DNA of 54,459 nucleotides from Acidobacteriota bacterium (GTDB lineage Bacteria > Acidobacteriota > Terriglobia > 2-12-FULL-54-10). The notes beneath the pieces are model-generated. The model did not search any database and was not told the origin of the DNA. It worked only from the letters and a program-made list of their open reading frames with translations. This document shows, piece after piece, positions 12,909 through 37,179 of the stretch; position 1 is the first letter of the stretch, and the number at the start of each line of letters is the position of its first letter. The DNA is taken from contig JADFGZ010000001.1 in NCBI GenBank assembly GCA_022567475.1, positions 1 to 54,459 of the forward strand. Reading direction: 5' to 3'. Both the position numbers and the translations under genes were made by a program.

Positions 12909-13122
12909 AAAGAACTCCGGCGGTGAACGGCTCTGAATCGACGGCGAAGCCTTCCCCACCCTGGGGGGATATCTACTGATAATAAATCTCTTCAGCGAGC
13001 TTGACAAGAGGGACATTCGCGATCTTCTTTTCGGCGGTGCTCTTTACAGCACGCCGCCGGTCTGCTATTTTGCAGCCTTAGTTCTCGCATCTTGGGTTGT
13101 AGTGGTTGAGGACTGTTTAAAG

Positions 13123-22475: not shown

Positions 22476-23672
22476 TCATCCTCCCGTCCGCTTTCCGGAG
22501 CCGCTCCCGTGGTAGAGGGGAGAAAGTTCCCGCAGGCGATTCACCGCCTCCACCACCCGGTCCTTCACATAGTCCACCTCTTCCTCCGTATTGAACCGGC
22601 CCAACCCAAAGCGGATGGAGGACTGGATCAGCTCCTCGCTGATCCCTAGCGCCTTCAGGACGTGGCTCGGCTCCACGGCCGCCGACGTGCAGGCCGAGCC
22701 GGTGGAGAGGGCGACGTCATGGACGCCCATCAGCAGGGATTCGGCCTCCACGCAGGCAAAGCTCAGGTTCAGGTTGTGAGGCAGCCGCTTGGTTTCGTCT
22801 CCGTTGAGATAGACCTCATCGAGCCCCGCCAGAATGCCGTTCTTCAGCCGGTCTCGCAGCTTTCGCAAACGCTCTGACTCGGCGTCCATCTGCCCGGCGC
22901 AAATCCGGCAGGCCTCGCCCAGGCCCACAATGCCCGGCACGTTCAGGGTGCCGGAGCGCATGCCGCGCTCGTGGCCGCCGCCCTCGATCATCGGCGGCAA
23001 CGCCACACGGGGGTTTTTCCGCCGGATGTAGAGCCCCCCGATTCCCTTCGGCCCATACATCTTGTGGGCGGTAAACGACAGCAGGTCAATGTTCATCTTC
23101 TCTACGTCCACCGGCACATGGCCCACGGCTTGCGTGGCATCCGTGTGGAACAGGACTCCGTTTTCCCGAGCCAGGCGGCCGATCTCCGCCACGGGATGAA
23201 TCGTGCCGATTTCATTGTTGGCGAACATGACGGTGATCAAGACGGTCTGTGCGCTGATTGCCCGGCGCACATCGTCCGGGTCCACCAGCCCGTTGCGGTC
23301 CACCGGCAAGTAAGTGACACGGCAGCCGGAGCGTTCCAGCCGCTTGCAAGTGTCGAGCACCGCATTGTGTTCGGTGGCAACCGTGATGATGTGATTGCCG
23401 CGCTCATGGTGCAGCTCCGCCACTCCCCGGATGGCCAGATTGTCGGACTCGGTGGCGCCGGAAGTGAAAATGATCTCTTTGGGGCGGGCGCCGATCAGTT
23501 GAGCCGCTTGTTTCCGGGCCAGCTCGACCGCCGCTTCCGCCTCCCATCCGAAGGAGTGCTTGCGGCTGGCTGCGTTGCCGAATTTCTGAAGGAAATAAGG
23601 CGTCATGGCCTCAAAGACCCGAGGGTCCACGGGGGTCGTGGCGTGATGGTCCATATAGATCGGCAGCTTCAT
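22476..23672 (-). CDS. iscS: Cysteine desulfurase (IscS/NifS family, PLP-dependent)
   Basis: '[15 protein letters not shown]', '[13 protein letters not shown]', PLP-Lys '[20 protein letters not shown]', active-site loop 'STGSACTSA', C-terminal '[15 protein letters not shown]'. Confidence 0.9.
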
Positions 23673-23686
23673 CCGAGCACGTGCTC

Positions 23687-24319
23687 CTAGGGACGATCCT
23701 TTAGTTGGGGAGACTCACGGTGAAGCGGGCCTTGGCGCGCCCGTTCCGGACTCCTCATCTCCATCTCGTTGATCTTCCATGTAAATAGCCGCCACAACCG
23801 GCGCGTGTAGAGAAAGCCGGCGGTGCAGAGCAAAATAAAAAGTGTCAGCGGAAAGGCGCAGGCACGCAGCAGGGTGTGGGAAACGTCATCCAGGTTTTCA
23901 CCCCACCGGATGCCGAGGAAGCGGCGCAGAGCCTGCCGGCTTCCCCAGTCCAGCCAGAAGAAGTCAGCGTTCTCGTTGACTACCAAAACCTTGGCAGGGA
24001 GCAGCAGCATGCCCAGCATCTTCCAGCGCCACAGAATGGGCTCCCCCGTGCACAGAATCACCAGGACTTCCCATTTTTTTCTGCGGAACGAATACAGCAA
24101 GCGCAACTTGCTCCAGCCGGAAGGGTAATCCGTAACTCGGTATACGCTGGCAAACGCGCCGGGCGGCGGAGCCGGATGACAGGTGCACAGATGATACCGC
24201 GCGTTGGGAAAGAGTTTGAGAATGCTCTCCAGGGCGCGCCGTTGCACATCCGGCGAACCGCTCTCGATCAGGAGGATGTCTGCGGCTTGTGGCACCTTCC
24301 GTCTAAAAAAATACTTCAT
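23687..24319 (-). CDS. Hypothetical protein with C-terminal TM segment
   Basis: Preferred start is ATG 24319 ('[23 protein letters not shown]...'). TM '[22 protein letters not shown]'. The 5' extension of the ORF to 24658 is R/S-rich and looks non-coding. Ends 15 nt upstream of iscS. Confidence 0.5.
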
Positions 24320-24351
24320 CGCTGGCCGAGACCGGTCCCTTTCCGTTTTTC

Positions 24352-24519
24352 TCAGTAATAGTCGGAGCAAGACAGAAAATAGCCGCAGCGGAGGCAAGCC
24401 AGCTTGCATTGCCGTCCGGTTAGCTTTGCGGAGCAATTGGGGCAGTATTCCAGAGGCACGCCGGCTGATTCCCGGCTCCTCAGCCGCCGAGCGTGTCCCA
24501 CACCTTCGGGCCGGGCCAT
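24352..24519 (-). CDS. Small zinc-ribbon protein (CxxC...CxxC)
   Basis: 'YCPNCSAKLTGRQCKLACLRCGYFLSCSDYY' carries two CxxC pairs. Ends 33 nt upstream of the next gene. Short ORF, tentative. Confidence 0.35.
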   Translation of the reverse strand: MARPEGVGHARRLRSRESAGVPLEYCPNCSAKLTGRQCKLACLRCGYFLSCSDYY

Positions 24520-24684
24520 TTGTAGGGTCTCCCTCACGCTGGGAGATGGCTTCTTTCCTGCATCCATCATCGGAAGAATTATAAACGCTCCACCGGGAAG
24601 GCTTCAATCGAGTTCGTACGGGAACTGACGTCTTCCAAGCGCTGTTGTTATTGCGCACCTTGCCGCCAGACGCCGGGTTACTCG

Positions 24685-25467
24685 CTAGAGGTCGGGTTCG
24701 GCCTTCTGCGGCCCCGGCAGAGGGGCTTCCGGGCGGAGGTAGTATTTCGTCAGCCCTTCCTGCAAGAGCTGGAGAGCCGTTTCGGGGTCGTCGGCAAACT
24801 GAAACAGATCCATGTCGCTTGCGCTGATGGTCCCGTGACGAACCAGAGCCTCAAAGTTGATTACCTCTTTCCAGAACTCGGTGCCGTAGAGCAGAATGAT
24901 GAGCCTCTTGTTCATCTTCTGAGTTTGGACAAGCGTCAGGACCTCCATCATCTCATCCAGCGTTCCGAATCCGCCGGGGAAAAAGACCACGGCTTTGGCC
25001 AGGTAGGCAAACCAGAATTTGCGCATGAAGAAGTAATGGAATTGGAAGGAAAGCTCCGGGGTGATGTAGGGATTGGGGTACTGCTCAAAGGGCAATCCGA
25101 TGTTCAAGCCGACCGTCTTTCCGTTTGCATCCTGTGCTCCCCGGTTTCCGGCCTCCATGATTCCCGGTCCTCCGCCGGTGCAGACGACAAAGCGGCGGTT
25201 GGGGTCCTTCAGCTGGTCGGACCACTCGGTAACCATCCGCGCCAGAGTCCGCGCCTCGCGATAGTAGCGGCCGAGAGAGTCTTTCTCCTCAATGCGGGCG
25301 GAGCCGAAGAAAACGACCGTGTCCCGAATTCTCTCCCGGCGAAAGTGGGAGAAGGGCTCCAAAAATTCCGAAAGAATTCGCAACGCCCGCGCGTCGGGAC
25401 TATCTAGGAATCGCTCGTTCTTGTAAGCCACTGGCCGGTGATGGCCAGGCGGCGGTTGCTCAATCAT
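24685..25467 (-). CDS. LOG-family (TIGR00730) nucleotide N-ribohydrolase-like protein
   Basis: 'VVFFGSARI', 'VVCTGGGPGIMEAGNRGA', 'GLNIGLPFEQ', 'PGGFGTLDEMMEVLTLVQT' (PGGxGTxxE motif). Preferred ATG 25467 overlaps the upstream gene's stop by 8 nt. Confidence 0.8.
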   Translation of the reverse strand: MIEQPPPGHHRPVAYKNERFLDSPDARALRILSEFLEPFSHFRRERIRDTVVFFGSARIEEKDSLGRYYREARTLARMVTEWSDQLKDPNRRFVVCTGGGPGIMEAGNRGAQDANGKTVGLNIGLPFEQYPNPYITPELSFQFHYFFMRKFWFAYLAKAVVFFPGGFGTLDEMMEVLTLVQTQKMNKRLIILLYGTEFWKEVINFEALVRHGTISASDMDLFQFADDPETALQLLQEGLTKYYLRPEAPLPGPQKAEPDL

Positions 25468-26842
25468 GACGATGCTCCCTGAATTTGGCCCGAAAGGAAA
25501 ATGCGGGCCGGGGAAATTCCTCTTCCAGGCGAGAAGAGGATTTAGCTGGAAACCATGGGGGACTTGCCCGTGGCAGACGAAACCCGGAGCTTGTCCCCTC
25601 CGGCTCTGCGGCGTGAATGACAATCGGCAGCGGGACGGAGTTGCCGTCCTTGTCTCGCACGTCCACGGCTTCGGAGGAAAGAGGCGTGATCTTCATGGTC
25701 CGATCCTCGATTTCGACCAGCAGGAAATGGGATTGCGGCGCCCAGCCGGCGATATTTGCATCTTGCATTTTGCCGCGGATATCCTTGCGGCGCAACATGC
25801 CTCCCGCGCCGGTGATCACGTAACGGACATTGCCCGTCTTTTCATTCCGCTCACTGAACTGAAAATTATGCTCGTGGCCGTTGAATACCACCTGCACGCC
25901 GCTTTGGCGAGATAAATCGACCAGAGGGCGCAGGGAATGGAGACTTACTCCGTGCCCCGGCCCTGCATTGAACGGCGGGTGATGGTAGTAGGCAATCTTC
26001 CAGGGCGCTTTGGCAGCCGCCAGTGCTTGCCGCAGCCATTGCATTTGACTGCCAGGGTTGGATCGGTGCAATGCTTTCTCGGTTGTGTCGAGGGCGAAAA
26101 ACTCGGCCAACCCTCCAAAAGAAAATGTGTAGTAGCGGGCCGGCCCCGGGGCGGGGAAGAAAAAGTTGTCCAGATATGCGCCCAGATCACCAGTGGATTC
26201 CGATCCCTTGCTGTCGTGATTTCCGAGCGTCGGGTAAAAGGGAATGCTTTTCAAAAGGGGTTCGTACGGCTGGAAGAATTTCGATTCCCAATGGCTGTCT
26301 TTGTTGCCGCTTTTGGTTGGGATAAAACCCAGTATCCGGTCGGCATAGATATTGTCGCCGGTCGTTAAGACGAAGCGAACCGGATTGTCGGAGCGGCTTC
26401 GCTGCTCGAACTCCCGCCACATCGCCTCTGCAACTTCATATTGCGGGGGCTTGCCCGTGCCGTAGTCGCCGATCACAAAAAAAGCCAGCTTGCGGGATTT
26501 GTCCGGGTAGGTTCGCACCGTGCCGCCGCCGATCCTTTGATTTCCGAGCGGCATTTCATGCAGCGTAACTTCATATGGATACTCGGTGTCTGGCCGGAGG
26601 CCGTCCACGACAACCCAGTTCCGCTCAGAGGCTATTTGCCGATCCCCTAGTTTCACGGTGACTTTTCCGAGAGAGCGGGAGCTTCGTCCAATCGTGTTGC
26701 CACTGCCTTCCGTTGTTCCCCAGGCAAGCAGCACGGAATCGGTTTCGATCCGCCCTACGTAGGTGTATATCTTCTGCGCCTGGGCCGCAAAGGGAAACAG
26801 AAGGAGGAAGCAGAGCGTCCACAACGATCCAGCGCGGTTCAC
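25460..26842 (-). CDS. Secreted metallophosphoesterase (purple-acid-phosphatase-like, with N-terminal Fn3-like domain)
   Basis: 'FFVIGDYGTG', 'LTTGDNIY', 'YPTLGNHD', 'YHHPPF', 'VFNGHEHNFQ'. Signal-like 'SLWTLCFLLLFPFAAQAQ'. Start is GTG 26842 or TTG 26857, just after the upstream stop; the longer ORF to 27070 overlaps the upstream gene. Confidence 0.8.
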   Translation of the reverse strand: MNRAGSLWTLCFLLLFPFAAQAQKIYTYVGRIETDSVLLAWGTTEGSGNTIGRSSRSLGKVTVKLGDRQIASERNWVVVDGLRPDTEYPYEVTLHEMPLGNQRIGGGTVRTYPDKSRKLAFFVIGDYGTGKPPQYEVAEAMWREFEQRSRSDNPVRFVLTTGDNIYADRILGFIPTKSGNKDSHWESKFFQPYEPLLKSIPFYPTLGNHDSKGSESTGDLGAYLDNFFFPAPGPARYYTFSFGGLAEFFALDTTEKALHRSNPGSQMQWLRQALAAAKAPWKIAYYHHPPFNAGPGHGVSLHSLRPLVDLSRQSGVQVVFNGHEHNFQFSERNEKTGNVRYVITGAGGMLRRKDIRGKMQDANIAGWAPQSHFLLVEIEDRTMKITPLSSEAVDVRDKDGNSVPLPIVIHAAEPEGTSSGFRLPRASPPWFPAKSSSRLEEEFPRPAFSFRAKFREHRHD

Positions 26843-26867
26843 GCGAACAGGGTTCAAGGCAACGCTC

Positions 26868-28526
26868 CTACCAAGTGCGGTCCATTCCCACCACCTCCAC
26901 GCGGTCCGGCCTCTTGCCCGGCTTCTTGCGAAGATAGACGGTGATCGTCTTTTTGGGGTCGCCGCCATGAATGTCGGCAGCGAAGTATTCCCCTGCGGCT
27001 GATTCCAGGAGTTGGCTCGGCAAGCGAAAGGTTGTTTCTCCGGGGAGCGGAGATTTTTTCTCCGTATCATTGTTGAATCGCGACCACTGGACTACATAGT
27101 CCCGCGCAGGGGCCAGACGGTGCTTGACGGCCAAGTTCTCAAAGACTATCTGGTCCTCTTGCACGGCAAAGCGGTCCAGCGGCAGCATTTTGGCGAGGAA
27201 AGCCTTGCCGATTTTGTCGCGGCGCTCGATCAAACGATCGGCGATCCATTTCTCGGCCTCCGGGTTGCTGTATTGCCCCGTTTTTACGATGGCGCGAATC
27301 TGCGGGTCGGTGAAAGCCATGACCTGCTTGGCGGCCCAGAAGGCATCGTCCGGGAGGCGGTTGGAAAACGCCGGATTGGGATATTCGGGCACCCAACCCT
27401 CCGCGTCAAACTTCTCCGATTCGAAACGCCCCACGGAGGGAAGATCAGGAAACTTGGCCCTGGCCCATCGGGGCACAATCAGACCAAAGGTGAAGAACTG
27501 GATGGCAGCAGGCTTCCACGCGAACATATATTCGTGGCCGGACCTCGGAGTGTTCGGACCGTTGCTGGCGCTTCCCAGGGTGGAGCCAAAGTCGATCAGA
27601 TGATGCTTGACAAAAAAAACGCCGTTTTCCCGCACCAGCATATCGAGCGTATTAATGGACCGGGAATCATCGTGGCCGAGCCAGGCGCAAAAGACACTGA
27701 GCCCGCGCAGGTCACGCCGGTGCTCGTGAGGAACAATATCGTTCGGGTCGTCCTTTCTCGTGCCGTGATACCGGAACGGACCCACGGGTGTGCCTTCGAG
27801 ATAAAAGCTTGCCACCCCCCGGTATTCCCCCGCTTCGTTGCGGGGAACTTTGAGAAGAATTTCCGTGACGTCCCGCTCCGTCATCTCCCTTTCATTGCCC
27901 ACCGGGTCACGGAGCAGCACCCCCTCGCCCAGCACGAGTTGCTCCCGGTTGAAAAACACCAGGTAGTTCTCCGGCACAGGGTATCCCAAGGCATAGAAAA
28001 ACTTCGACGCGATCATGTCGGCTGCCGTAGCGATTTCCGGATAGTCCAGCGGGTCGAACTTCAGAATGTACCGGAGGCCGCGGGAATCGAGGATCGTAAA
28101 GCCAGGGGTGATTCCTTCCGCCTTGGCGGCAACCACGCGCCAGCGCCCCTCCATGGACGGCGCATTCTCATCGCCGGGACCCCGCACCAGCTCTTCGACC
28201 GTCATTGGGTGGTGATAATGACGGTTCGTGTACCAACTGCTGTCAGGCACCTCTCCCAGGGTGTTGACCGCCTGCGCCGGAATCAGCTTGGTTTTTGTGT
28301 GCCGTTCTCCTGGATGGGACAGGGTGTTGTAAAAAAAATCGTAGTAGTCGCTCAACTTGCGGCTCAACACATTCTCGACGTTCATCGGGGGCGGCACTTT
28401 TGTGATGGGATCGTCCTCGTAAAACTTTTGCGCGCTGAGGTTCAGTGGCAGCAGCAGCAAAAGAAGTGTGCTTCTCAGGAATTGGCCGCTTAGAAGAGAT
28501 TGCGAAGTAATGCGGTCTCCGTTCAT
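26868..28526 (-). CDS. Signal-peptide-bearing protein-kinase-like (PKL/PI3-4K-like) fold protein, paralogue 2
   Basis: Signal-like 'LRSTLLLLLLPLNLSAQ'. Kinase-ordered motifs: 'LRYILKFD' (beta3 Lys), 'AWLGHDDSRSINTLD' (H-x-D-x-R-x-x-N), 'HHLIDFGSTLGS' (DFG). Start 28526 or 28547. Confidence 0.7.
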   Translation of the reverse strand: MNGDRITSQSLLSGQFLRSTLLLLLLPLNLSAQKFYEDDPITKVPPPMNVENVLSRKLSDYYDFFYNTLSHPGERHTKTKLIPAQAVNTLGEVPDSSWYTNRHYHHPMTVEELVRGPGDENAPSMEGRWRVVAAKAEGITPGFTILDSRGLRYILKFDPLDYPEIATAADMIASKFFYALGYPVPENYLVFFNREQLVLGEGVLLRDPVGNEREMTERDVTEILLKVPRNEAGEYRGVASFYLEGTPVGPFRYHGTRKDDPNDIVPHEHRRDLRGLSVFCAWLGHDDSRSINTLDMLVRENGVFFVKHHLIDFGSTLGSASNGPNTPRSGHEYMFAWKPAAIQFFTFGLIVPRWARAKFPDLPSVGRFESEKFDAEGWVPEYPNPAFSNRLPDDAFWAAKQVMAFTDPQIRAIVKTGQYSNPEAEKWIADRLIERRDKIGKAFLAKMLPLDRFAVQEDQIVFENLAVKHRLAPARDYVVQWSRFNNDTEKKSPLPGETTFRLPSQLLESAAGEYFAADIHGGDPKKTITVYLRKKPGKRPDRVEVVGMDRTW

Positions 28527-28551
28527 TAAGAAATTGACTCTGCACATAGGC

Positions 28552-30183
28552 CTACCAAGTGCGATCAATCCCGACCACTTCCACACGATCGGGCTTTTTG
28601 CGAAGATAAACCGTTACCGTTTTTTTTGGGTCGCTGCCATGAATCTCGGCGGCGAAATAATCGCCAGGCGCTAATTCCAGAAGTTGTTTTGGCAGGCGAA
28701 AGGTTGTTTCGCCTGCAATTCGCGTCTTTCGTTCCGTATCATTATCGAACCGCGACCAGTGGACAGCGTAATTCCTCGAGGAAATCAGACGGTGCTTGAC
28801 GGCAAGGTCTTCAAACTTCAGTAGATCGCCCGTGACCTGAAAGTGATCCAGAGGCAAGACCTTTTGAAAGTACGTCCTCCCGATCTTGTCTCTACGGGCA
28901 ATGAGGTGGGATGTGAGCCCATCCTCGGCAGCCGGGTCACTGTAGTCGGCCGTCCGGACAAGGGCCCGAATCTGCCCGTCCGTAAAAGCCATCACCTGCT
29001 TGGCTGCCCAGAACGTGTCGCCGGGCAGCCGGTTTTCAAAAGCGGGAATCGGGTAGTTGGTCTTCCATCTTTCTGGCTCGAAAAGCTGCGATTCGAAGTT
29101 ACCCACCGACGAGAGCCTGGGATAGTGCGCCCTGGCCCAGCGCGGCACATAGAAGCCGAGGGTGAAAGCCTGTAGGGTGGCCGCCTTCCAGGCAAATAGA
29201 TACTCATTGCCCGCCCGAGGACTTTTCGCCGTGAAACTGTCGCTGCCCAGGCTCGCGCCAAAATCGATCAGATAGTGCTTGATATAGCGGACCCCGTTCT
29301 CTTCCACTAATGTGTCGAGCGAGTTGAGCGACTTTGCGTCATTATGGCCCAGCCAGGCAAAGAAAACAAACAGGCCTCGCAGGTCGCGGCGATGCTCGTG
29401 CGGCACTATATCGTTCGGATCGTCACTTCGCGTGCCGTAGTAGCGGAAAGGTCCCAGGATCTTGCCGCTCAGATACAGGCTGGCCACCGCACGGTATCCC
29501 TTATCAGTGTCGCGCGGCACACGCAGAAGAATTTCCCCGATATCCCGGTCGTTCATCTTCCGGTGTTTGCCGTCCGCATCCGTGAGGGTAGCATCGGGCG
29601 CCACTACAAGCTGTTGCCGCTTGAAATACACGACGTAGTTCTCCGGCACATGATAGCCAAGAGCATAAAAGAATTTGGAGGCCATGACATCCGCCGCGGA
29701 CGCCATTTCGGGATAGGTAAGGGGATCGAACTTCAGAATATACCGGCGGCCACGCGCATCCTCGATCGTGAATCCCGGCGTCACTCCTTCCGTTTTCGCC
29801 GCTACCACCTTCCAGAGTCCTTCTCGGCTGGGCGGGTTTTCGTTTCCCGGACCCCGCACCAGCTCTTCGACCGTCATTGGGTGGTGGTAGTGTCGGTTCG
29901 TGTACCAACCGCTGTCGGGAACCTCCCCCAGTGTGTTGATCGCCTGCGCCGGAATGATTTGATTCCTTGTGTGCCGTTCGCCGGGTTCGAATAGTGTGTG
30001 ATGAAAGAAATCGTAGTAGTCGCTCAGCTTGCGGCTCAACACATTTTCTACGTTCATCGGGGGCGGCACTTTTGTGATGGGATCGTCCTCGTAAAACTTT
30101 TGCGCGCTGAGGTTCAGTGGCAGCAGCAAAACTAGCAGTGCGATTCTCACAAATCTGCCGTTCCGAACAATTACTGCCGTCAT
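28552..30183 (-). CDS. Signal-peptide-bearing protein-kinase-like (PKL/PI3-4K-like) fold protein, paralogue 1
   Basis: Signal-like 'FVRIALLVLLLPLNLSAQ'. 'RRYILKFD', 'AWLGHNDAKSLNSLD' (H-x-D-x-K-x-x-N, same spacing as HRDLKPEN), 'HYLIDFGASLGS' (DFG). Tandem paralogue of 26868-28526. Confidence 0.75.
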   Translation of the reverse strand: MTAVIVRNGRFVRIALLVLLLPLNLSAQKFYEDDPITKVPPPMNVENVLSRKLSDYYDFFHHTLFEPGERHTRNQIIPAQAINTLGEVPDSGWYTNRHYHHPMTVEELVRGPGNENPPSREGLWKVVAAKTEGVTPGFTIEDARGRRYILKFDPLTYPEMASAADVMASKFFYALGYHVPENYVVYFKRQQLVVAPDATLTDADGKHRKMNDRDIGEILLRVPRDTDKGYRAVASLYLSGKILGPFRYYGTRSDDPNDIVPHEHRRDLRGLFVFFAWLGHNDAKSLNSLDTLVEENGVRYIKHYLIDFGASLGSDSFTAKSPRAGNEYLFAWKAATLQAFTLGFYVPRWARAHYPRLSSVGNFESQLFEPERWKTNYPIPAFENRLPGDTFWAAKQVMAFTDGQIRALVRTADYSDPAAEDGLTSHLIARRDKIGRTYFQKVLPLDHFQVTGDLLKFEDLAVKHRLISSRNYAVHWSRFDNDTERKTRIAGETTFRLPKQLLELAPGDYFAAEIHGSDPKKTVTVYLRKKPDRVEVVGIDRTW

Positions 30184-30197
30184 GATGACATCGTTCC

Positions 30198-31499
30198 TTA
30201 GAAAACTGACTGCGTGCCTGGGGTCCCCACGGAGCCTTCGCTGAAAATGTTATTGAACTTGACCCAAACCTGGAAACCCTCGTGGCTGAAGCCCACATCC
30301 AGCCGCAAGAACACGTTGTTGCGTACGTTGAATCGCAACCCGAACCCAACTGATCCTTCCATATCCTTAAAGTTCCATTGAGATCGTTTGGAAAAAACCT
30401 TCCCGGCATCCACAAACAGAGCCATATCCAGGCCGCTGAAGGTTTCCCAGCGATATTCGGCGTTGACCACAATCAGGTTGTCATCGTAGAAGCGAAAGGG
30501 GCGGAAGCCGCGCAGATCGTCCGATCCCCCCAGGACCGGCTGGAGATAGAAGGGCACTTTCTGGCCCTCATCTGTAAAGGTCAGGATCGATTTCCCGCGC
30601 AGAGCGATCACTCTGCGCTTGTTGAAAAAAGGGATGTATTGCTGGAAGTGCAACTCCAGGCGCTCGAAATCGTGCTGGCCAAGCGTCCGGTCAAGGTAAC
30701 GGCTGTATTGAACGATGTAGTTGCCGCCGCTCCGGGGCCCGCCCGGATTGTCGCGGGTATCGTATTGGGCGAACGCTCCATGGCGCAGGAAGTCGGCCTG
30801 CCGGTCGATTCCCGGCGTCTCCGCCGGAGGGAAGACCTGATCTGCGGAGACAAACCTGGAGTCTGTTCCGGGTCCGACATTGAGGAGCGTGTATCCTGCG
30901 GTTGCCCCGATTCGCAGGTCACGGGCGGGTTTTACGCCGAAAGTAGCATCGAAAGCTGTGTCCTCCAAGCGGAAGTTGCTTCTGGAATTCTTTTGGGAAT
31001 CGGGACCCGGCCCGTAGTAATTAATTCCGGGGTAGTTGCGATGAGCCGAGTAGAGGTCCAGAAATAAATGATCGGCGGCGAAGCTGGGCAGGCTGAACTG
31101 CAAATCGAACTTCCGGTACCCTTTGAAGGATGACTGGGCTGCGCCGCGAAATATGATTTCGCCGCGTGCCAGGTCGCTCCGCAAGTATTCGGGCCCCAGC
31201 GCAAAACCGGAGCCGCTCACCAAGCCGCCCAGCTTCAGGCGGAAGCCCGCGACCCCGGCGCTGATACGTTCCAGCAGCTTGGCATCTTTGAAATGGATAA
31301 GAGCCCGTTCGGTCCCGCTCATTTCATCGGGTTCAAGACTTTGGGCTTTTCGAGCGCGGGCGGCCTGGATTTCCCCGGCCCGGGAATCCACCTGCGCCGG
31401 CAGAAGCGGGCAAAGCAACAGAAGCGGCGCAATCCAGAACGCAATCTTCAGCACGCGACAAATCCTCTTGGACGTAGATGAGCCCCACATCAGATACAC
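30198..31499 (-). CDS. Omp85/surface-antigen (D15)-type outer-membrane beta-barrel protein
   Basis: Signal-like 'IAFWIAPLLLLCPLLPAQ'. Alternating beta-strand pattern. 'VVNAEYRWETFSGLDMALFVDAGKVF' and 'GFGLRFNVRNNVFLRLDVGFS' resemble Bac_surface_Ag barrels. Terminal residue is Phe. Confidence 0.7.
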   Translation of the reverse strand: MYLMWGSSTSKRICRVLKIAFWIAPLLLLCPLLPAQVDSRAGEIQAARARKAQSLEPDEMSGTERALIHFKDAKLLERISAGVAGFRLKLGGLVSGSGFALGPEYLRSDLARGEIIFRGAAQSSFKGYRKFDLQFSLPSFAADHLFLDLYSAHRNYPGINYYGPGPDSQKNSRSNFRLEDTAFDATFGVKPARDLRIGATAGYTLLNVGPGTDSRFVSADQVFPPAETPGIDRQADFLRHGAFAQYDTRDNPGGPRSGGNYIVQYSRYLDRTLGQHDFERLELHFQQYIPFFNKRRVIALRGKSILTFTDEGQKVPFYLQPVLGGSDDLRGFRPFRFYDDNLIVVNAEYRWETFSGLDMALFVDAGKVFSKRSQWNFKDMEGSVGFGLRFNVRNNVFLRLDVGFSHEGFQVWVKFNNIFSEGSVGTPGTQSVF

Positions 31500-31667
31500 T
31501 CTCCAGCTTCTTCGCTTGCTTCCCGGAGCCTGCTTCGCTCATCTAATAAGTATAATATAAGACGATCGAATGCACGTACGGTTACAGGTTTTTGTGCTGG
31601 CGCATCCCCTGTTGCATTCTGGAAGGTTTAGGATGGATCCGCCCAAGGACAATATTTTAGATATTCT

Positions 31668-33032
31668 GTGCAGGCGAGAGTGATGGTCAACCCACTCCAG
31701 AACGTCATGGACATCCGCAAGGAGGAACTGCCGCTCTCCTTGCTGATGTTCAGCTATTTTTTCTTGGTCATTACCAGCTTCTGGATCCTGAAACCGATCA
31801 AAAAGTCGCTGTTCATCGAATTTTACGATGCCTCGGGATTTGATCTTTTCTCCTGGCACATGCAGGCTTCTCAAGCGGAACTCTTGGCGAAAGTGCTGAA
31901 CATGGTGGTGGCTTTTGTCGCCGTAGTCGTCTTTACATGGCTGGCGCGGCGGTTTCGCCGCCAGCAGTTGAGCGTGATTTTTACAGGCTTCTTCATGGCC
32001 TGCTTTGTCGCCTACACGTTCGTAATCAACACTCCCGGCGATTTCACAGCCTGGACGTTTTACCTTTTCGGGGACCTCTACAGCACGTTGATGGTGGCGA
32101 CATTTTTCGCGTTTCTGAATGATAGTGTCACCCCCGATAAGGCCAAACGGCTTTATGGTCTGGTCGGCCTCGGCGGAGTGACTGGGGGCGCATTCGGATC
32201 CACCTTCGTTGCTGTCTGGGTTGACGATCTCGACACATCCTCCTGGTTGTGGATTTGTTTTGGAATCGCGTTTGCGATTGGAGTTGTAGCGCTGGCAGCC
32301 GGCAGGCTTGTGGATCGAAATCCCCCAGTGGAGGAAACGGAAAAACCCACACCGGATACCGCTCCAGAAGGAAAGAGCAATCCGGCGCTGGAAGGAGCCC
32401 GCTTGGTAATGCGCTCGCCTTACCTGCTGGCGATACTAGGCATCGTGGGGCTCTATGAAATCGTTTCTACTATTATGGATTTCCAGTTTACGAGTACGAT
32501 TGCCCATTACCTGGAGCCACCGGAAATCGGCCAGCAATTTTCAAGGATTTTTGCCATTACCAACATCGTTGCGATGCTCGTTCAGATCTTTCTAACCAGC
32601 CTTGTCATGACCCGGTTCGGATTGACTGTTGCTCTGTTGGTCCTGCCGCTGGCCGTCCTGGTTGGTTCCGGGGGCTTCCTGGCCGTGCCCATTCTGTGGG
32701 TTGGCAGTTTCCTAAACACTGCCGACAATGGCTTCAGCTACTCGATCAACCAGTCCGCGAAGGAGGCACTGTACGTACCTAGGACACGGGATGAAAAGTA
32801 TAAGGCGAAGGCATTCATCGACATGTTTGTGCAGCGGTTCGCCAAGGCTTTGGCCGTGGGGGTAAGCCTTGGTATCACAGCCATCTTTAGCGACTTTTCC
32901 ACCATCCGGTGGTTGTCCGTCTTTACCGTTGTCGTTGTCGTGGTATGGATTTATGCGGCCCGTTACGCGGGACGCCACTTCCAGAAAATGACACAGTCGA
33001 AGGTCGGTTCCGCAACCGAGGTCGCCGTCTGA
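31668..33032 (+). CDS. Npt1/TLC-family (ATP/ADP-translocase-like) MFS transporter
   Basis: 'LPLSLLMFSYFFLVITSFWILKPIKKSLF' and 'ATFFAFLNDSVTPDKAKRLYGLVGLGGVTGGAFGS' match hallmark TLC motifs (compare F-W-x-F-A-N-E...A-K-R-F-Y in Rickettsia/Chlamydia translocases). About 11-12 TM segments. Alternative start ATG 31683. Confidence 0.75.
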   Translation: MQARVMVNPLQNVMDIRKEELPLSLLMFSYFFLVITSFWILKPIKKSLFIEFYDASGFDLFSWHMQASQAELLAKVLNMVVAFVAVVVFTWLARRFRRQQLSVIFTGFFMACFVAYTFVINTPGDFTAWTFYLFGDLYSTLMVATFFAFLNDSVTPDKAKRLYGLVGLGGVTGGAFGSTFVAVWVDDLDTSSWLWICFGIAFAIGVVALAAGRLVDRNPPVEETEKPTPDTAPEGKSNPALEGARLVMRSPYLLAILGIVGLYEIVSTIMDFQFTSTIAHYLEPPEIGQQFSRIFAITNIVAMLVQIFLTSLVMTRFGLTVALLVLPLAVLVGSGGFLAVPILWVGSFLNTADNGFSYSINQSAKEALYVPRTRDEKYKAKAFIDMFVQRFAKALAVGVSLGITAIFSDFSTIRWLSVFTVVVVVVWIYAARYAGRHFQKMTQSKVGSATEVAV

Positions 33033-33330
33033 CCTATATTGACCCGTTTGCCGGGAAATCTCGGGCCGGGCGAAAGTCCTCCAGGCGATTTTACTGTTCT
33101 TCCTGCCGGGCGGTTGGCACCTTTTCTCAATCTTTTGCCCTCCGTGCTTTGCCGCGTTGGCGTCGAGCACTTCCGGAAGTAGTTAGGTTAAAAATAACTC
33201 GCGACGGGCACGCGGCTGCTTCGGGATACTGGTGCCGTCCCAGCCTTTTCTTGCCCGTTGTCTCAAGCAGCGGGGGCTTGCAGAACTGGCTTTATTCCTA
33301 TATGACGGTATTGTGGAGGGAGGAGAATCC

Positions 33331-34767
33331 ATGAGGCGCAAGAAATATCTGTTTGTCTTCGTCCTGACGCTGGTTGTCTGTCTGCTGGCGGGCCGTGGCC
33401 TTCCAGCGCAATCGCCGTCAAAGGAAGAACCCGCGAGTGATCTGAGGAAGTTGAGCATCTCGCTCCAGGCCTTGTCGGAACGGGTGAGCCCGGCGGTGGT
33501 GCAGATTTTCACGACGGGCTTTGCCCCAGTCCAGGATGTTGTGGGGGCCAGCACAGGGCTGGTTTCCAGCCAACGTAGCGGCGGCTCCGGGGTCCTGGTT
33601 GACCCGGAGGGTTATATCGTAACCAACGCCCATGTAGTCGAAGGTGCCCGGCGGGTCCAAGTCTTGCTGGCAGTGCCACCTGATGAGAGAGCCCAGTGGC
33701 GCTCCATTCTAAAGCCCCGCGGGAAGACCGTTTCTGCCAGAATCGTAGGAATCGATCGAGAGACCGATCTCGCCGTATTGAAGGTTGAACAAAAGGGACT
33801 GGCATGGCTCGAACTGGGGGATTCCGACCGGGTACGGCAGGGCCAGTTGGTGCTGGCGTTCGGCAGTCCTCTCGGGTTGGAGAATTCGGTGAGCTTGGGC
33901 GTGGTGAGCTCCGTGGCACGCCAACTGGGCCCCGAGGATCCCATGATCTATATCCAAACGGATGCCACCATCAACCCGGGAAACAGCGGCGGCCCGCTGG
34001 TGGACACCGAGGGCCGCGTGGTTGGGATTAACACATTCATCGTGTCGCAGTCCGGCGGCAGTGAAGGAATTGGCTTCGCAGCCCCCAGCAATATTGTCCG
34101 GAACGTTTTTAGGCAGATCCGCAGGACCGGCCGGGTCCGCCGCGGCCAGATCGGGGTGGCGACCCAAAGCGTGACGCCAACGCTCGCAGCCGGGTTGGGA
34201 CTCACTCAGGATTGGGGTGTGGTCGTCGGAGATGTGTTTCCCGGCGGACCGGCCGAAGCGGCGGGAATCGAGATCGCAGACCTGATCCTGACTCTGGATG
34301 GCAAAGTCATGGAGAATGCGCGTCAGTTTGATGTCAATCTCTACCAGCGTTCCATTGGCGATGCGGTGACCCTGGAGGTGCTCCGCGGTTCGCAGAAGCT
34401 CACGAAGATCGTTTCGTTATGGGAGCGTGCCAACGACCCTGACCTTTTTGCGAACCTGGTCAGCCGCGAGACAAACCTCATTTCAAGGCTTGGCATTCTG
34501 GGCGCCGAGTTGGACGACCGGATCACCAAAATGCTCCCGCCGCTGCGGGAACCCTCCGGCATTCTGGTTGCAGCCCGCGCGGCGGAAGCCCCCTCTCGGG
34601 GCGAAGGATTTCTGCCAGGTGACGTGATCCATTCGATCAACGGGGCGCCGATCCGGGACCTCGCCGGACTCCGAGCCACAGTGGGCAGCCTCAAGGTCGG
34701 TGACCCGGTAGTTATCCAAATCGAGCGGTTTGGTCAATTCCTGTTCCTTGCCTTCGAGATCGAATAG
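33331..34767 (+). CDS. htrA: Periplasmic serine endoprotease HtrA/DegP/DegQ family with two PDZ domains
   Basis: ATG 33331 after GGAGGGAGGAG. Signal 'LFVFVLTLVVCLLAGRGLPAQ'. Triad 'TNAHVV', 'DLAVLKV', 'GNSGGPLVD'. Two PDZ-like segments. Confidence 0.9.
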   Translation: MRRKKYLFVFVLTLVVCLLAGRGLPAQSPSKEEPASDLRKLSISLQALSERVSPAVVQIFTTGFAPVQDVVGASTGLVSSQRSGGSGVLVDPEGYIVTNAHVVEGARRVQVLLAVPPDERAQWRSILKPRGKTVSARIVGIDRETDLAVLKVEQKGLAWLELGDSDRVRQGQLVLAFGSPLGLENSVSLGVVSSVARQLGPEDPMIYIQTDATINPGNSGGPLVDTEGRVVGINTFIVSQSGGSEGIGFAAPSNIVRNVFRQIRRTGRVRRGQIGVATQSVTPTLAAGLGLTQDWGVVVGDVFPGGPAEAAGIEIADLILTLDGKVMENARQFDVNLYQRSIGDAVTLEVLRGSQKLTKIVSLWERANDPDLFANLVSRETNLISRLGILGAELDDRITKMLPPLREPSGILVAARAAEAPSRGEGFLPGDVIHSINGAPIRDLAGLRATVGSLKVGDPVVIQIERFGQFLFLAFEIE

Positions 34768-34804: not shown

Positions 34805-37171
34805 TCACGCGATTCCACTCGACTTCCGGCTGTTTTCAAATTGCTTTCTGATCTCGGTGAGGTTCAGTTCAATGGACTGGTGGGAGCGCATCAGGGTAGC
34901 CAGGATTTCTTCGCGGGAGCGTGCTTCCCGCTTTTTCTTGCGGCGGTCTTCCAGAAAGGGCCACAGCCGCTCGCGGATCGGCGGAGGCAGGATGCTTTCC
35001 ATGTATTCCAGAGCCGTGCCCCGGAGGTGCTCGTCGTTGGTGTGCAATCCCCGAAAGGCGATTTGGAGGGGCTCTTTGGGCAGAACCAGCGAGAGCATCG
35101 TGAACACGTGTTCCAGGCTCCGATTCGCCCGGTCCCGCAGGAAGTCGTCGATAAAAGGCGAATCCTCCAGACCCTCCTCCGGGTCCAGGAGCCGGTGGGT
35201 TCCCCAGACCTTCTTGCCGACGGTTACTTCCCGCTGCACGGCCTCGAAGACCGGCTCCGGGTCGATGTGGATTTCTGGGTTTCTGTCCCGAATCGATGCC
35301 AGCGCGCAGCCGCATTGAAAGCGGACCTCAAAACGCTTGTCGGCCAGACCCAGCAAGAGCCCGTCGGCAGCCCGCTGGGAGGCGGTGAAAGAAAGCACCT
35401 TCGGGATGCGCCGGCGAATGGCGAATTCCTGGCCCGGGTCGAGCAACGCGTCCACCAACTGCCCCGTCATATGGGGGGCTGCCTGGCGCAGAGCCAGCAA
35501 GGCGTCGCCGGAGACCTCATTCCACGCGAGCAGAGGAATGACGTGTGGAAACAGAAGCGGGTCGGAAATTTCCTCCCGCAGGGCCTCCCGGACGCGGCCA
35601 GGATTTCCGGAACGGAAAGCTGAAATTTTCTCCAAAACCGGGTCCTGGGAACCCGGAGCCACTGTGGGCTGCTTTCCCTGTGGAACGTCGCGTGGCATGC
35701 CGGGGGAGGGCAACTCCGAAGCTGACTTCTGGACCAAGAGGTTCTTGCGTTGTGATTGCTCGCCGGAAGCGCGCTGCAAAGAAAGAGGCACCAGGGGGTC
35801 GCTGCTCAGATGCAGGGCTCCGAGAGTCTGCAAAATTGTGGAGCGGGTGGTGCTGTCCTGTACATCTGAAATGTCCAGCTCGACCGCCCGGTTCAGCAAA
35901 TTCTTCTCGAGCGAGGCGATGTAGCCACGGTTCAAACGGCTGGCCACCAGGAGTCCCAAGAACGCCAGGACAATCGACAGGGTCAGGATGGCGGAGTGCG
36001 CTGCGGCCGGTCCCAGCAGCAGCATCAACCGGATGATGCCGCCGCCGAGAGCGTCTCCCAGGCGGTCAAATCCCACATCGACCATGGTTTTGGTTGCGCG
36101 CTTTTCCTGGGCGGGGATCGGCGTATAGAGAATTTCGTACCCGGAACGGAAAAGGGAGCTGCGAACCACCGACTCCGCGCCCCGGGCGATCCCGGCGCTG
36201 ACGAGACCCGGCGCAAGCAGCGCTCCCACGCCTCCGGCAGCCACGATGAGGGGAAGCGTCCCCACTGTTTTCGCGAGGCCCAGCTTTTCCAGCGCGCGGC
36301 GGCTGAGCGAGGTTTGAATGAAGAAGGTGAGCAGGCTGGCGGCGCTGTAGAAGACGGCAAAGAAGCGCATCAGGCTCTCCCCGCCTCCAAAGGTTGCGGC
36401 GGCTTGAGCCTTGAAGACATAGTCAATGCCGGCGCTGCTCACCGTCGCCAGCAGAACCAGCACGGCCAGGTTGCGCAGGTAAGGAGCTTCCCTGAGGATA
36501 TGGAAGACCGAGCGGCCGGGTTCCGGGGCGGAGTCGCCGCTCGAATCTTTTTTCCCCGCCGTCGGCTTTCCTGCCAGCTTCCCCGCCAGCGGGCCTGCCA
36601 CGGCTTGCAGCGGCCTCAGCTTGAGGACCGCCCAGGCGCAAAACAGATGCAGGGCGGCCATCATGGGAAGCATGGCCGCCACCGACAGGGTCGCCCCCAC
36701 GCGTTCGGCCAGAAGGCCGCCGGCGAGTCCTCCGAGAGTGGCTCCGGCGGCAATCTTTCCGATTCGTTTCTTGGCCGTCCGGGGATCGAACCGCTCGTTC
36801 ACCATCGACCAGAACCCCGAGATCAGGACAGCGCCGAGGCCGGCCATGTGGAGATAGACCACAACCGCCCCTGCTCGCGGACTTTGGTGCACCAGTCCCC
36901 ACTCGCCCAGCAGCAACAATCCGCTGACCGCAAAAGCGCCGGGAACCAGCTTGGCCGGGGTGAGCGCGGGCATGGCGCGGGAGGCCGCGAGCACCACGAC
37001 GATAGAGAACAAGGATGCCCCGATCAGCATCAGGGGCAGGGAGGTCACGTCAAAATTGGAAAGGAAGAGAGCGTCGCGGGTCGCCTTCCCTCCCACTTGG
37101 TGGGCGATCATGGCGGCAGCGCTCAGCATGGCGGCGGAGGCAGCCGCATCGGTTTCCGAGCGCCGGGACAT
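34805..37171 (-). CDS. Npt1/TLC-like MFS transporter fused to a C-terminal HEAT-repeat domain
   Basis: Preferred start ATG 37171 ('MSRRSETDAAAS...') after AAGGGAGA, 9 nt after the kinase stop. 'ATRDALFLSNFDVTSLPLM' and 'GFWSMVNERFDPRTAKKRIGKIAAGATLGG' match TLC motifs. The C-terminal ~300 aa show HEAT-like helical repeats ('LLGLADKRFEVRFQCGCALA', 'HLRGTALEYMESILPPPIRERL'). Confidence 0.75.
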   Translation of the reverse strand: MSRRSETDAAASAAMLSAAAMIAHQVGGKATRDALFLSNFDVTSLPLMLIGASLFSIVVVLAASRAMPALTPAKLVPGAFAVSGLLLLGEWGLVHQSPRAGAVVVYLHMAGLGAVLISGFWSMVNERFDPRTAKKRIGKIAAGATLGGLAGGLLAERVGATLSVAAMLPMMAALHLFCAWAVLKLRPLQAVAGPLAGKLAGKPTAGKKDSSGDSAPEPGRSVFHILREAPYLRNLAVLVLLATVSSAGIDYVFKAQAAATFGGGESLMRFFAVFYSAASLLTFFIQTSLSRRALEKLGLAKTVGTLPLIVAAGGVGALLAPGLVSAGIARGAESVVRSSLFRSGYEILYTPIPAQEKRATKTMVDVGFDRLGDALGGGIIRLMLLLGPAAAHSAILTLSIVLAFLGLLVASRLNRGYIASLEKNLLNRAVELDISDVQDSTTRSTILQTLGALHLSSDPLVPLSLQRASGEQSQRKNLLVQKSASELPSPGMPRDVPQGKQPTVAPGSQDPVLEKISAFRSGNPGRVREALREEISDPLLFPHVIPLLAWNEVSGDALLALRQAAPHMTGQLVDALLDPGQEFAIRRRIPKVLSFTASQRAADGLLLGLADKRFEVRFQCGCALASIRDRNPEIHIDPEPVFEAVQREVTVGKKVWGTHRLLDPEEGLEDSPFIDDFLRDRANRSLEHVFTMLSLVLPKEPLQIAFRGLHTNDEHLRGTALEYMESILPPPIRERLWPFLEDRRKKKREARSREEILATLMRSHQSIELNLTEIRKQFENSRKSSGIA

Positions 37172-37179
37172 CACTCTGG

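Follow-up and report, generated by a model that had tools for sequence, protein, structure and literature searches.

Exported kinase-fold proteins with a conserved catalytic site, encoded beside a POTRA-less Omp85 barrel in Acidobacteriota and other bacteria

Two adjoining minus-strand genes of a soil Acidobacterium, here called A and B, belong to a family of exported kinase-fold proteins with an intact catalytic site, and our analysis supports the interpretation offered in a preliminary description of this DNA. Both genes lie in the window, the whole stretch of 54,459 nucleotides that was analysed. The most informative feature of the locus is new and had been missed in that description: the two genes stand in a neighbourhood of Omp85, metallophosphoesterase and TLC/NTT genes. 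These neighbours recur with the kinase gene, which suggests a module, and we favour as the probable reading a phosphotransferase module of the cell envelope, possibly with a nucleotide supply of its own. The genes concerned are as follows.

31668 to 33032, plus strand: TLC/NTT (ATP/ADP-translocase-like) MFS transporter, divergent from the Omp85 gene (PF03219, 97.4 bits, cutoff 21)
30198 to 31499, minus strand: Omp85-family outer-membrane barrel of 433 aa (Pfam Omp85 and NCBIfam), with its stop 14 nt upstream of the A start
28552 to 30183, minus strand: gene A, kinase-fold protein of 543 aa (open reading frame, AF2 models, Foldseek kinase matches, large homologue family)
26868 to 28547, minus strand: gene B, paralogue of A; a start at the ATG at 28547 would give about 559 aa
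25460 to 26857, minus strand: exported metallophosphoesterase, purple-acid-phosphatase-like (Pfam Metallophos, 61 bits)
24685 to 25467, minus strand: LOG/lysine-decarboxylase-family gene (Pfam), with an ATGA overlap with the metallophosphoesterase gene
34805 to 37513, minus strand: NTT-HEAT-like large TLC-family protein (PF03219, 30.9 bits, cutoff 21)

The listed open reading frame of B spans 26868 to 28586 on the minus strand; translation probably begins at the ATG at 28547, 4 nt past the A stop, in agreement with the orthologue P0013 (N-terminus MHRVDFLMNG...). Compared along their whole length, A and B share 69% identity. Protein A comprises a signal peptide (residues ~1-27), a conserved N-terminal segment (28-100), a protein-kinase-like (PKL) core (~120-440) and a C-terminal beta-sandwich (445-543). 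The kinase motifs previously attributed to these tandem paralogues are all found in both proteins, and in the same order: the leader end LLLPLNLSAQ (residues 19-28 in A, 31-40 in B), RYILKFD (147-153 and 159-165), an acidic helical segment (PEMASAADVMASKFFYALGY at residues 158-177 of A, with PEIATAADMIASKFFYALGY as the B counterpart), the catalytic loop (HNDAKSLN at 280-287 of A, HDDSRSIN at 292-299 of B) and LIDFG (305-309 and 317-321). On the DNA, these and related features lie at the following positions.

30103 to 30183, minus strand: Sec-type leader of A (read from sequence and hydrophobicity; leaders are kept across the family)
29770 to 29796, minus strand: Gly-rich loop of A, K130-x-E-G133-x-T-P-G137-F, between strands beta1 and beta2
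29725 to 29745, minus strand: strand beta3 of A with Lys151 in RYILKFD (AF2 model and conservation)
29653 to 29712, minus strand: alphaC-like helix of A (helix 160-174 in the models)
29374 to 29424, minus strand: DDPNDxxPHEHRRxLRG motif of A, family-specific and invariant, ahead of helix alphaE
29323 to 29346, minus strand: catalytic loop of A, H280-N-D282-A-K-S-L-N287, after helix alphaE
29257 to 29271, minus strand: LIDFG of A with the DFG Asp307 (conservation)
28053 to 28073, minus strand: beta3 Lys motif of B
27651 to 27674, minus strand: catalytic loop of B, HDDSRSIN
27585 to 27599, minus strand: DFG motif of B

In the AF2 model the Lys stands at the end of strand beta3 and the acidic segment opens the next helix, while helix alphaE leads into the H-x-D...N loop and the next beta hairpin into the DFG. 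This fitting context, together with the joint conservation of the K-D-N-D tetrad, argues that the motifs are no chance pattern. Conservation among homologues had been named as a test of the kinase interpretation, and in 373 homologues K151 and D282 are each kept in 93%, N287 in 95% and D307 in 99%, with all four retained jointly in 335. The Gly-rich loop is similarly kept in this set (K130 94%, G133 96%, G137 94%), as are the other two DFG residues (F 90%, G 88%). Of the alphaC acids, E159 is present in 86% and an acid (E or D) occupies position 165 in 92%, and from the sequence E159 and D165 are candidate ion-pair acids for Lys151. Two observations count against the phosphotransferase reading. 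About 10% of the 373 homologues lack at least one catalytic residue, and the strictest conservation falls outside the kinase tetrad, at D255, D258, H262, R266, R269, D389, W392 and R430. The first five of these belong to DDPNDxxPHEHRRxLRG and are identical in 100% of the 373 homologues; to our knowledge no such motif occurs in characterised kinases.

A kinase-like structure was likewise borne out. The AF2 core model (pLDDT 96.1, pTM 0.94) and the full-length model (pLDDT 77.9) both match kinases in a Foldseek search of the PDB, and the 50 matches listed are all kinases or kinase-like proteins except for a few of low probability. The top matches of the core model, at a probability of about 1.0, are Fam20 (Hydra 5xom, E 2.2e-5, and also C. 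elegans Fam20), CtkA (3akk, TM 0.46 on the query and 0.54 on the target), Rio2, PI4KIIalpha and VPS34. Of the features that define the PKL superfamily, the bilobal fold, with an N-lobe rich in beta strands, an alphaC helix and a helical C-lobe, is seen in the model, and the beta3 Lys with an alphaC acid, the catalytic Asp and Asn and the DFG Asp are seen in the model context and the conservation pattern. TM-scores of these predicted models to known kinases reach only 0.4-0.55, which points to a new and distant family of the superfamily and is also compatible with chemistry other than phosphotransfer, as in SelO or SidJ. The preliminary description was right about a kinase fold and kinase motifs, and overstated the case in calling the core canonical, as the nearest structures are the atypical kinases Fam20, CtkA, Rio2 and PI4KII. 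Its view that the family is uncharacterised agrees with our data: searches of Pfam, NCBIfam and PDB sequences gave no match, and the source records call every member a 'hypothetical protein'. The HipA-like resemblance that it noted is faint: among the 55 homologues scanned with Pfam alongside A and B, HipA_2 gave a signal in seven and HipA_C in four, covering the N-lobe and reaching at best E 0.0017 and ~11 bits where the cutoff is 27. We rejected membership of the HipA-like kinases (PF07804, PF20613) on these sub-threshold matches, of Fam20 on the lack of a Pfam match, a TM-score of ~0.4 and 6-12% identity, of the CotH kinases on the absence of CotH from every Pfam scan of A, B and the 55 homologues, and of the Hanks protein kinases on the absence of any PF00069 or PF07714 profile match at E<=1 in the same proteins. 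Two genuine Hanks kinases, at 136-157 bits, are encoded elsewhere in the window.

The export call rests on hydrophobicity and a lipobox heuristic, with cytoplasmic proteins of the window as controls. The leader of A has Arg residues in its n-region, the hydrophobic stretch IALLVLLLPL and a predicted cleavage site between LSA and QK, and its hydrophobicity is 3.1 as against <2 for the controls, all of which fell under the threshold. It had been recognised beforehand that the leader might prove to be a cytoplasmic N-terminus; this does not describe the family, in which 296 of 319 complete homologue N-termini (93%) carry a hydrophobic leader, 120 of them with a lipobox-like L-x-[GAS]-C (~38% of the 319). 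The metallophosphoesterase and Omp85 neighbours likewise have leaders. The family as a whole numbers ~3,300 clusters at 50% identity and is found in Acidobacteriota, Zixibacteria, Latescibacterota, Calditrichia and Krumholzibacteriia; one cultured host that could be used for experiments is Paludibaculum fermentans.

An Omp85 gene lies directly upstream of the kinase gene, on the same strand, at 123 of 127 loci (97%, shared ancestry being ignored), and the two are duplicated as units at four loci (L087, L107, L146, L147). In the window this neighbour scores 70 bits against PF01103 (cutoff 24), its translation contains LRGF and FVDAG motifs, and no POTRA domain was found at E<=1 in a Pfam scan. 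With a barrel, lid-lock motifs and no detectable POTRA, it agrees with the 'noNterm' type of Omp85 protein, to which no function has been assigned (PMC11358297, PMC4104836). Homologues of the barrel at other loci gave Omp85 or ShlB barrel matches only. We rejected a two-partner secretion system for both partners: the TpsB barrel needs two POTRA domains and the neighbour has the Omp85 barrel domain alone (E<=1), and no TPS (haemagglutination-activity) Pfam match was found in A, B or the 55 homologues.

The operon of the window, Omp85-A-B-metallophosphoesterase-LOG, has gaps of 14, 4 and ~10 nt and then the ATGA overlap. The metallophosphoesterase likely starts at a TTG ~10 nt after the B stop, with a leader LWTLCFLLLFPFAAQA that ends before QK; at 32 loci a homologue is the next gene after the kinase gene, with a median gap of 65 bp, and homologues of other phyla carry a lipobox. 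The LOG gene is predicted to be co-transcribed here and is no conserved partner, being beside the cluster only in one near-identical relative (L003). Of 101 loci with flanks of at least 8 kb (up to 8-10 kb a side, shared ancestry being ignored), 53 have TLC or NTT-HEAT genes there, in all four classes of position and orientation, and at 29 loci the kinase gene is followed directly by a TLC gene, with a median gap of 177 bp. The true start of the large TLC-family gene at 34805 to 37513 is uncertain, since the listed open reading frame overlaps an upstream kinase frame; it is homologous to TLC+HEAT genes of clusters at L083-L085. In a Zixibacteria genome the order on one strand is Omp85, kinase, Metallophos, TLC, TLC+HEAT, cNMP-binding and response regulator. 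An unclassified bacterium has the same order minus the single-domain TLC gene, and a Latescibacterota genome lacks both that gene and an adjacent Omp85 gene.

The site is complete (Gly-rich loop, beta3 Lys, alphaC acid, H-x-D-x-[KR]-x-x-N and DFG), and on this ground we read A and B as metal-dependent phosphotransferases that, from sequence and model, are probably active. Phosphotransfer would occur in the cell envelope rather than in the cytoplasm. A physical partnership with the dedicated POTRA-less barrel is about equally probable, and the barrel may dock, surface-expose or translocate its kinase partner, which would probably make contact through its conserved and flexible N-terminal segment. 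That the exported metallophosphoesterase antagonises the kinase, by reversing or processing the phosphorylation, is put forward tentatively. Supply of ATP by the TLC/NTT inner-membrane transporters, which would bring nucleotide to the far side of the inner membrane, is doubtful. The absence of a nearby TLC/NTT gene from about half of the long-flank loci counts against the reading as a whole. Outside the tetrad, Arg, His and Asp residues are invariant at many positions, which suggests as candidate substrate an envelope molecule of strong charge that is probably phosphorylated or acidic. Against the envelope phosphotransferase reading, we know of no ATP available in the periplasm, and periplasmic ATP would leak through porins. 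It also counts against this reading that Cyanobacteria and Chlamydiae, groups in which we have no evidence for this kinase family, have NTT-HEAT genes as well (PMC5381601).

The same objection of an ATP-free periplasm favours exported pseudokinases, or enzymes of other chemistry such as AMPylation, glutamylation or use of a non-ATP phosphoryl donor, or else ligand-binding subunits that regulate or plug the barrel. The strictly invariant residues outside the tetrad and the only distant structural similarity to known kinases would suit such proteins too, and the atypical PKL families SelO and SidJ do catalyse other reactions with a kinase fold. We nevertheless hold this to be quite unlikely, as the joint Lys, Asp, Asn and DFG Asp (335 of 373) and the Gly-rich loop are typical of active nucleotide users, and the linked TLC/NTT transporters fit nucleotide use. 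Those transporters could instead belong to a nucleotide-scavenging module, one that takes up or processes extracellular nucleotides, in which the kinase-fold protein binds or interconverts them in the periplasm, the metallophosphoesterase is a nucleotidase or phosphodiesterase and the NTT proteins import nucleotides as in intracellular parasites. Metallophosphoesterases include periplasmic 5'-nucleotidases and every part of the locus is predicted to be in the envelope; moreover, all characterised NTT/TLC proteins are nucleotide importers (PMC5381601). Such a module is improbable in view of the kinase-Omp85 linkage, which is the tightest (97%, with kinase-NTT at ~52%), because no role as a solute channel is known for Omp85 barrels, and because binding alone needs no kinase fold with an intact catalytic site.

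The barrel-then-cargo order resembles tpsB-tpsA and such pairs duplicate as units, and the secreted kinase CtkA is among the best structural matches; the barrel might thus translocate the kinase as an effector or toxin that acts inside another, ATP-holding cell, like CtkA or HipA-type toxins. This is very improbable for proteins that are highly conserved and in stable synteny over at least five phyla of free-living bacteria, unlike polymorphic toxins. The barrel also has no POTRA and the cargo no TPS domain by Pfam, no immunity-like gene is present, many members are lipoproteins and would thus be membrane-anchored, and an effector role would leave the linkage to NTT and phosphatase genes unexplained. 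It is barely credible that the hydrophobic N-terminus is no export signal and that the kinases are cytoplasmic, or anchored in the inner membrane facing the cytoplasm: heuristic as the export call is, the leader has a textbook n-h-c structure with an A-x-A-type site, replaced by a lipobox Cys in ~38% of homologues, both operon partners are exported, and cytoplasmic controls score low.

The envelope phosphotransferase reading could be widened, in a form that we think rather unlikely, to a dedicated extracytoplasmic phosphorylation system in some diderms (Acidobacteriota, Zixibacteria, Latescibacterota and relatives). ATP would be exported to the periplasm by TLC/NTT exchangers, including NTT-HEAT; a kinase, either exported or anchored by lipid and held or surface-displayed by its own POTRA-less barrel, would phosphorylate an envelope or extracellular target; and the exported metallophosphoesterase would take the phosphate off. 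If true, this would provide the first functions for NTT-HEAT and 'noNterm' Omp85 proteins. In the textbook view the periplasm has no ATP and hence no kinases; the present family is large, multi-phylum and exported, with a conserved kinase active site, and its genes are linked to ATP/ADP translocase homologues. Should the proteins be active, they would open up a so far unexplored level at which abundant bacteria of soil and sediment regulate or modify their envelope; read conservatively, they are still a new family of the kinase superfamily that has no Pfam model.

Among known systems, the CotH spore-coat kinases (Nguyen et al. 2016) are reportedly bacterial atypical kinases that act outside the cytoplasm and often have signal peptides. 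They have mostly been described from Firmicutes spores, with no known link to Omp85, and our family differs in having no Pfam CotH match and no CotH among the listed Foldseek matches. CtkA (JHP940) of H. pylori is a secreted bacterial kinase and gave the highest TM-score on the target (0.53-0.55). The A/B family differs from CtkA and HipA in being about twice as long, with a C-terminal beta-sandwich, and from the HipA-like kinases (HipA_C, HipA_2) in its H-x-D-x-[KR]-x-x-N catalytic loop, which is not the HipA pattern. HipA-type toxins pair with an antitoxin gene, and none of that kind was seen in the A/B gene context. As in two-partner secretion (TpsB/TpsA), an Omp85-superfamily barrel gene directly precedes the gene of its presumed client and the pairs duplicate together; here, in contrast, the barrel has no POTRA, and the client has no TPS domain and is a lipoprotein in many lineages. 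The succession TLC, TLC+HEAT and cNMP-binding gene is the NTT-HEAT(-cNBD) arrangement of Major, Embley and Williams 2017 (PMC5381601). That paper assigns no function to NTT-HEAT, the words 'periplasm' and 'export' were not found in it, and its passages that we read name neither a kinase nor an Omp85 or phosphoesterase protein as partner. The linkage to these genes appears to be new. The Fam20 family (the Golgi casein kinase Fam20C and the xylose kinase Fam20B; 4kqb, 5xom) gave the best Foldseek matches, with E-values of 2e-5 to 3e-4 and a probability of 1.0. It differs from A and B in being eukaryotic, in having no Omp85 partner and no DDPND..H..RR..R motif, and in the low identity and TM-score and lack of a Fam20C Pfam match given above. 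Fam20 proteins are, like A and B, atypical PKL enzymes with a signal sequence, and they work outside the cytosol with ATP transported into their compartment; the wider system proposed here, if it exists, would be a bacterial counterpart of this eukaryotic secretory-pathway system.

The tandem paralogues A and B, encoded on the minus strand, carry export signals and conserved catalytic residues on a predicted kinase-like fold, and their family is tightly coupled to an Omp85-like barrel gene. Coupling to exported phosphoesterase and nucleotide-transporter homologues is looser. In the window the genes for the Omp85 protein, A, B, a metallophosphoesterase and a LOG-family protein show operon-like packing on the minus strand, and this free-living Acidobacterium has two genes of the ATP/ADP-translocase-like (TLC/NTT) family within 6 kb of sequence, one resembling the large NTT-HEAT form that combines TLC and HEAT.

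Genes of the cluster and its surroundings in the window
31499 to 30198, minus strand: Omp85-like barrel, separated from A by 14 nt
28552-30183, minus strand: A, an ORF of 543 aa
26868-28586, minus strand: B, an ORF with a probable start at ATG 28547, ~559 aa
26857 to 25460, minus strand: exported metallophosphoesterase
31668-33032, plus strand: TLC/NTT-family transporter, divergent from the Omp85 gene
33232-34767, plus strand: HtrA/DegP-type periplasmic protease, between the two TLC-family genes
34805-37513, minus strand: NTT-HEAT-like large TLC-family gene, ~900 aa
37180-38823, minus strand: Hanks-type Ser/Thr kinase, extended N-terminally by ~235 aa (Pkinase 136 bits), immediately upstream of the NTT-HEAT-like gene, the ORFs overlapping
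10539-13016, minus strand: 825-aa protein with a Hanks kinase domain and a partial adenylate/guanylate-cyclase catalytic domain
13102-17727, plus strand: 1541-aa NHL/teneurin-NHL beta-propeller repeat protein with a BACON_2 domain, in the window's most GC-rich stretch (GC 0.66)

The probable start of B lies 4 nt past the stop codon of A, which is the whole gap between the two genes, and matches the N-terminus of the orthologous protein P0013 (MHRVDFLMNG...); the 530-aa gene call for B (P0011), which starts inside the hydrophobic leader, is probably wrong. B and the metallophosphoesterase are ~10 nt apart, and the metallophosphoesterase stop overlaps the LOG-family start in an ATGA (window 25460-25467), suggesting that these two genes may be translationally coupled. 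The LOG gene was nevertheless rejected as part of the system, as it stands beside the cluster only in the closest relative, a Terriglobia MAG (L003) whose proteins are 83-95% identical to those of the window. A promoter and terminator scan of 23500-33300 gave no excess over shuffled expectation, and the transcription unit is thus not defined by such predictions; identical terminator-like matches at 28379 and 30051 are the A/B repeat itself. Identity between A and B is 69% along the full length. Both share, without a single difference, the leader end and some 33 residues at the start of the mature protein, QKFYEDDPITKVPPPMNVENVLSRKLSDYYDFF (30004-30130 in A, 28332-28457 in B). Across A residues 31-60, DNA identity between the genes reaches 96%, with 4/30 synonymous differences, and outside this stretch synonymous differences affect about half of the identical codons. 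The pattern resembles local gene conversion, of a segment that we suspect of contacting the shared Omp85 partner.

No Pfam or NCBIfam model matched A or B at E<=1, and nothing beyond noise came back from PDB sequence searches, whether the query was one sequence or a profile of 55. The full-length AlphaFold2 model (pLDDT 77.9, pTM 0.81) has a leader helix, a poorly ordered segment at 28-100 (numbering of A), a mixed alpha/beta core and a C-terminal beta-sandwich at 445-543; a core-only model of residues 95-445, built with 109 diverse homologues, reached pLDDT 96.1 and pTM 0.94. Searched against the PDB with Foldseek, both models returned essentially kinases only, at probability ~1.0, TM-scores of 0.3-0.55 and 6-16% identity, in agreement with the kinase-like fold proposed in the preliminary description. 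Matches include Hydra Fam20 (5xom, E 2.2e-5), H. pylori CtkA (3akk, TM 0.46 by query and 0.54 by target) and the C. elegans Golgi casein kinase (4kqb), as well as Rio2, PI4KIIalpha, VPS34 and an alpha-kinase. Since these matches come with low TM-scores and identities, the models place the family in the protein-kinase-like superfamily, outside all of its described families. Tests at family level found no membership of Pkinase, Fam20, HipA, CotH or TPS: a canonical Hanks kinase was ruled out by the lack of a Pkinase profile match, and Fam20, HipA and CotH by scores below thresholds. Of the HipA-like resemblance noted earlier there persists a faint sequence echo in 7/55 homologues, well below threshold (best E 0.0017).

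The motifs that had been read from the sequence were all found, in order, in both A and B, and the secondary structure of the model puts them where a kinase would have them. K130-x-x-G133-x-x-x-G137 lies between strands beta1 and beta2, K151 ends beta3, E159 and D165 are at or within the following helix, H280-x-D282-x-K-x-x-N287 comes after helix alphaE, and D307-F-G after the next beta hairpin. Among 373 homologues aligned to the family HMM, conservation was 93% for K151, 93% for D282, 95% for N287 and 99% for D307, with all four jointly present in 335; at least one catalytic residue is lost in ~10% of homologues, and members lacking the full set may be pseudoenzymes. Conservation is even stricter (99-100%) at R97, D142, G176, D255, D258, H262, R266, R269, G313, D389, W392 and R430. 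Part of this set falls in the motif DDPNDxxPHEHRRxLRG directly preceding alphaE, which has no counterpart known to us among characterised kinases. The charge of these strictly conserved residues leads us to infer that they bind a strongly charged substrate.

In both leaders a positively charged n-region precedes a Leu-rich core, the site is L-S-A|Q-K, and a simple hydrophobicity test sets A, B and the neighbouring Omp85 and phosphoesterase proteins apart from cytoplasmic controls (all <2.0). Export, which had been proposed from the hydrophobic leader, is thus also predicted by this test, and a leader is present in 296/319 homologues with a complete N-terminus, indicating that export probably dates back to the ancestor of the family. 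Of the 296, 120 have a lipobox-like L-x-[GAS]-C; the acidobacterial clade is of signal-peptidase-I type and many members in other phyla are lipoproteins. A cytoplasmic location fits poorly with lipoboxes being common in the family, and was ruled out because leaders and lipoboxes are conserved.

The family is large: clustering at 90% identity gives ~5,000 clusters with a match at E<=1e-3, and at 50% identity 3,294 representatives match, 951 of them at E<=1e-30. The source names are all 'hypothetical protein', which, with no sequence match in Pfam, NCBIfam or the PDB, bears out the initial view that the family is uncharacterised. All 78 retrieved genome loci are from Acidobacteriota (Bryobacterales, Solibacteraceae, Terriglobia), including the cultured Paludibaculum fermentans, and querying with the lipoprotein-type branch leads to Calditrichia, Zixibacteria, Latescibacterota and Krumholzibacteriia. 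Homologues P0130, P0133 (969 aa), P0195 (1158 aa) and P0170 (742 aa) have C-terminal extensions of 200-600 residues; eight homologues of unusual length (685-1158 aa) showed no extra domains when scanned with Pfam, and BLAST of the extensions against the cluster proteins found no similarity.

We compared 165 related loci by tblastn with cluster proteins from five genomes, and give linkage as raw counts over related genomes. In 123/127 loci whose upstream sequence extends for 1.5 kb or more, an Omp85-like gene directly precedes the kinase gene on the same strand. The gene directly downstream is a metallophosphoesterase in 32 loci (median gap 65 bp) and a TLC gene in 29 (median gap 177 bp); among loci flanked by 8 kb or more, 53/101 have a TLC or NTT-HEAT gene in the flanks, with 23/35 in the distant/metagenome set. 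NTT-HEAT genes occur in all four position and orientation classes, a distribution that favours retained linkage over frozen synteny. Loci L087, L107, L146 and L147 carry Omp85-kinase pairs duplicated as whole units; tandem duplication of such pairs, or of Omp85 alone, is seen in these and in L001/L128, and in several genomes Omp85-kinase loci occur at two separate places (such as L014/L036, L029/L050 and L022/L068). The duplications and double loci suggest that barrel and enzyme form cognate pairs.

In a Zixibacteria genome the genes run on one strand as Omp85, kinase, Metallophos, TLC, TLC+HEAT, cNMP-binding protein and response regulator. An unclassified bacterium has this cluster minus the single-domain TLC gene; in the cluster of a Latescibacterota genome that gene and an adjacent Omp85 gene are both missing, and a 32%-identical homologue has the same gene set split over both strands. 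In the other phyla, the cNMP-binding and response-regulator genes hold the position of the 37180-38823 kinase. An HtrA/DegP homologue is directly downstream of the kinase gene in locus L033 (7163-8536). In the Zixibacteria cluster of L083, a PAP2-family phosphatase (assigned by Pfam family only; 4473-5471) just upstream of Omp85 may point towards a lipid-phosphate substrate.

In the Omp85 partner the barrel domain bears the lid-lock motifs LRGF and FVDAG, and no POTRA domain was detected (Pfam, E<=1), making the protein one of the 'noNterm' barrels, whose function is unknown (PMC11358297). We propose that A/B-type proteins are putative active phosphotransferases of the envelope, that the barrel would dock or surface-expose the kinase via its conserved N-terminal segment, that the exported phosphoesterase would antagonise it, and that NTT proteins might supply its nucleotide. 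Nucleotide supply is the weakest and least certain step, because the NTTs characterised so far either import or exchange, and no NTT gene lies near half of the loci; an energised, free-living cell that consumes ATP in its periplasm could, though, drive an ATP/ADP exchanger outward.

Two readings rival that of an envelope phosphotransferase, namely a non-kinase chemistry or pseudoenzyme role for the proteins themselves, and a nucleotide-scavenging module for the cluster. A secreted effector resembling two-partner secretion (TPS) fits poorly, as POTRA and TPS domains, an immunity gene and toxin-like variability are all absent; the missing domains also ruled out classical two-partner secretion. 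A and B represent a new family within a known superfamily, and their genetic context is new as well. The linkage of kinase, Omp85, phosphoesterase and NTT genes is a new finding, and our literature search, aimed at exported kinases partnered with Omp85 or NTT, found no paper describing the family or the linkage.

The TLC/NTT family is usually discussed for intracellular parasites. The available text of PMC5381601 gives the role of the family in free-living bacteria as unknown, and describes NTT-HEAT(-cNBD) proteins as widespread and functionless there; TLC+HEAT followed by a cNMP-binding gene, as in our clusters, is exactly that arrangement. Neither 'periplasm' nor 'export' occurs in that text, which mentions no kinase, Omp85 or phosphoesterase partner. 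Among characterised kinases, CtkA and Fam20 have the folds closest to the A/B family, and the Fam20 kinases share with it a signal peptide and, on our reading of A and B, action outside the cytosol.
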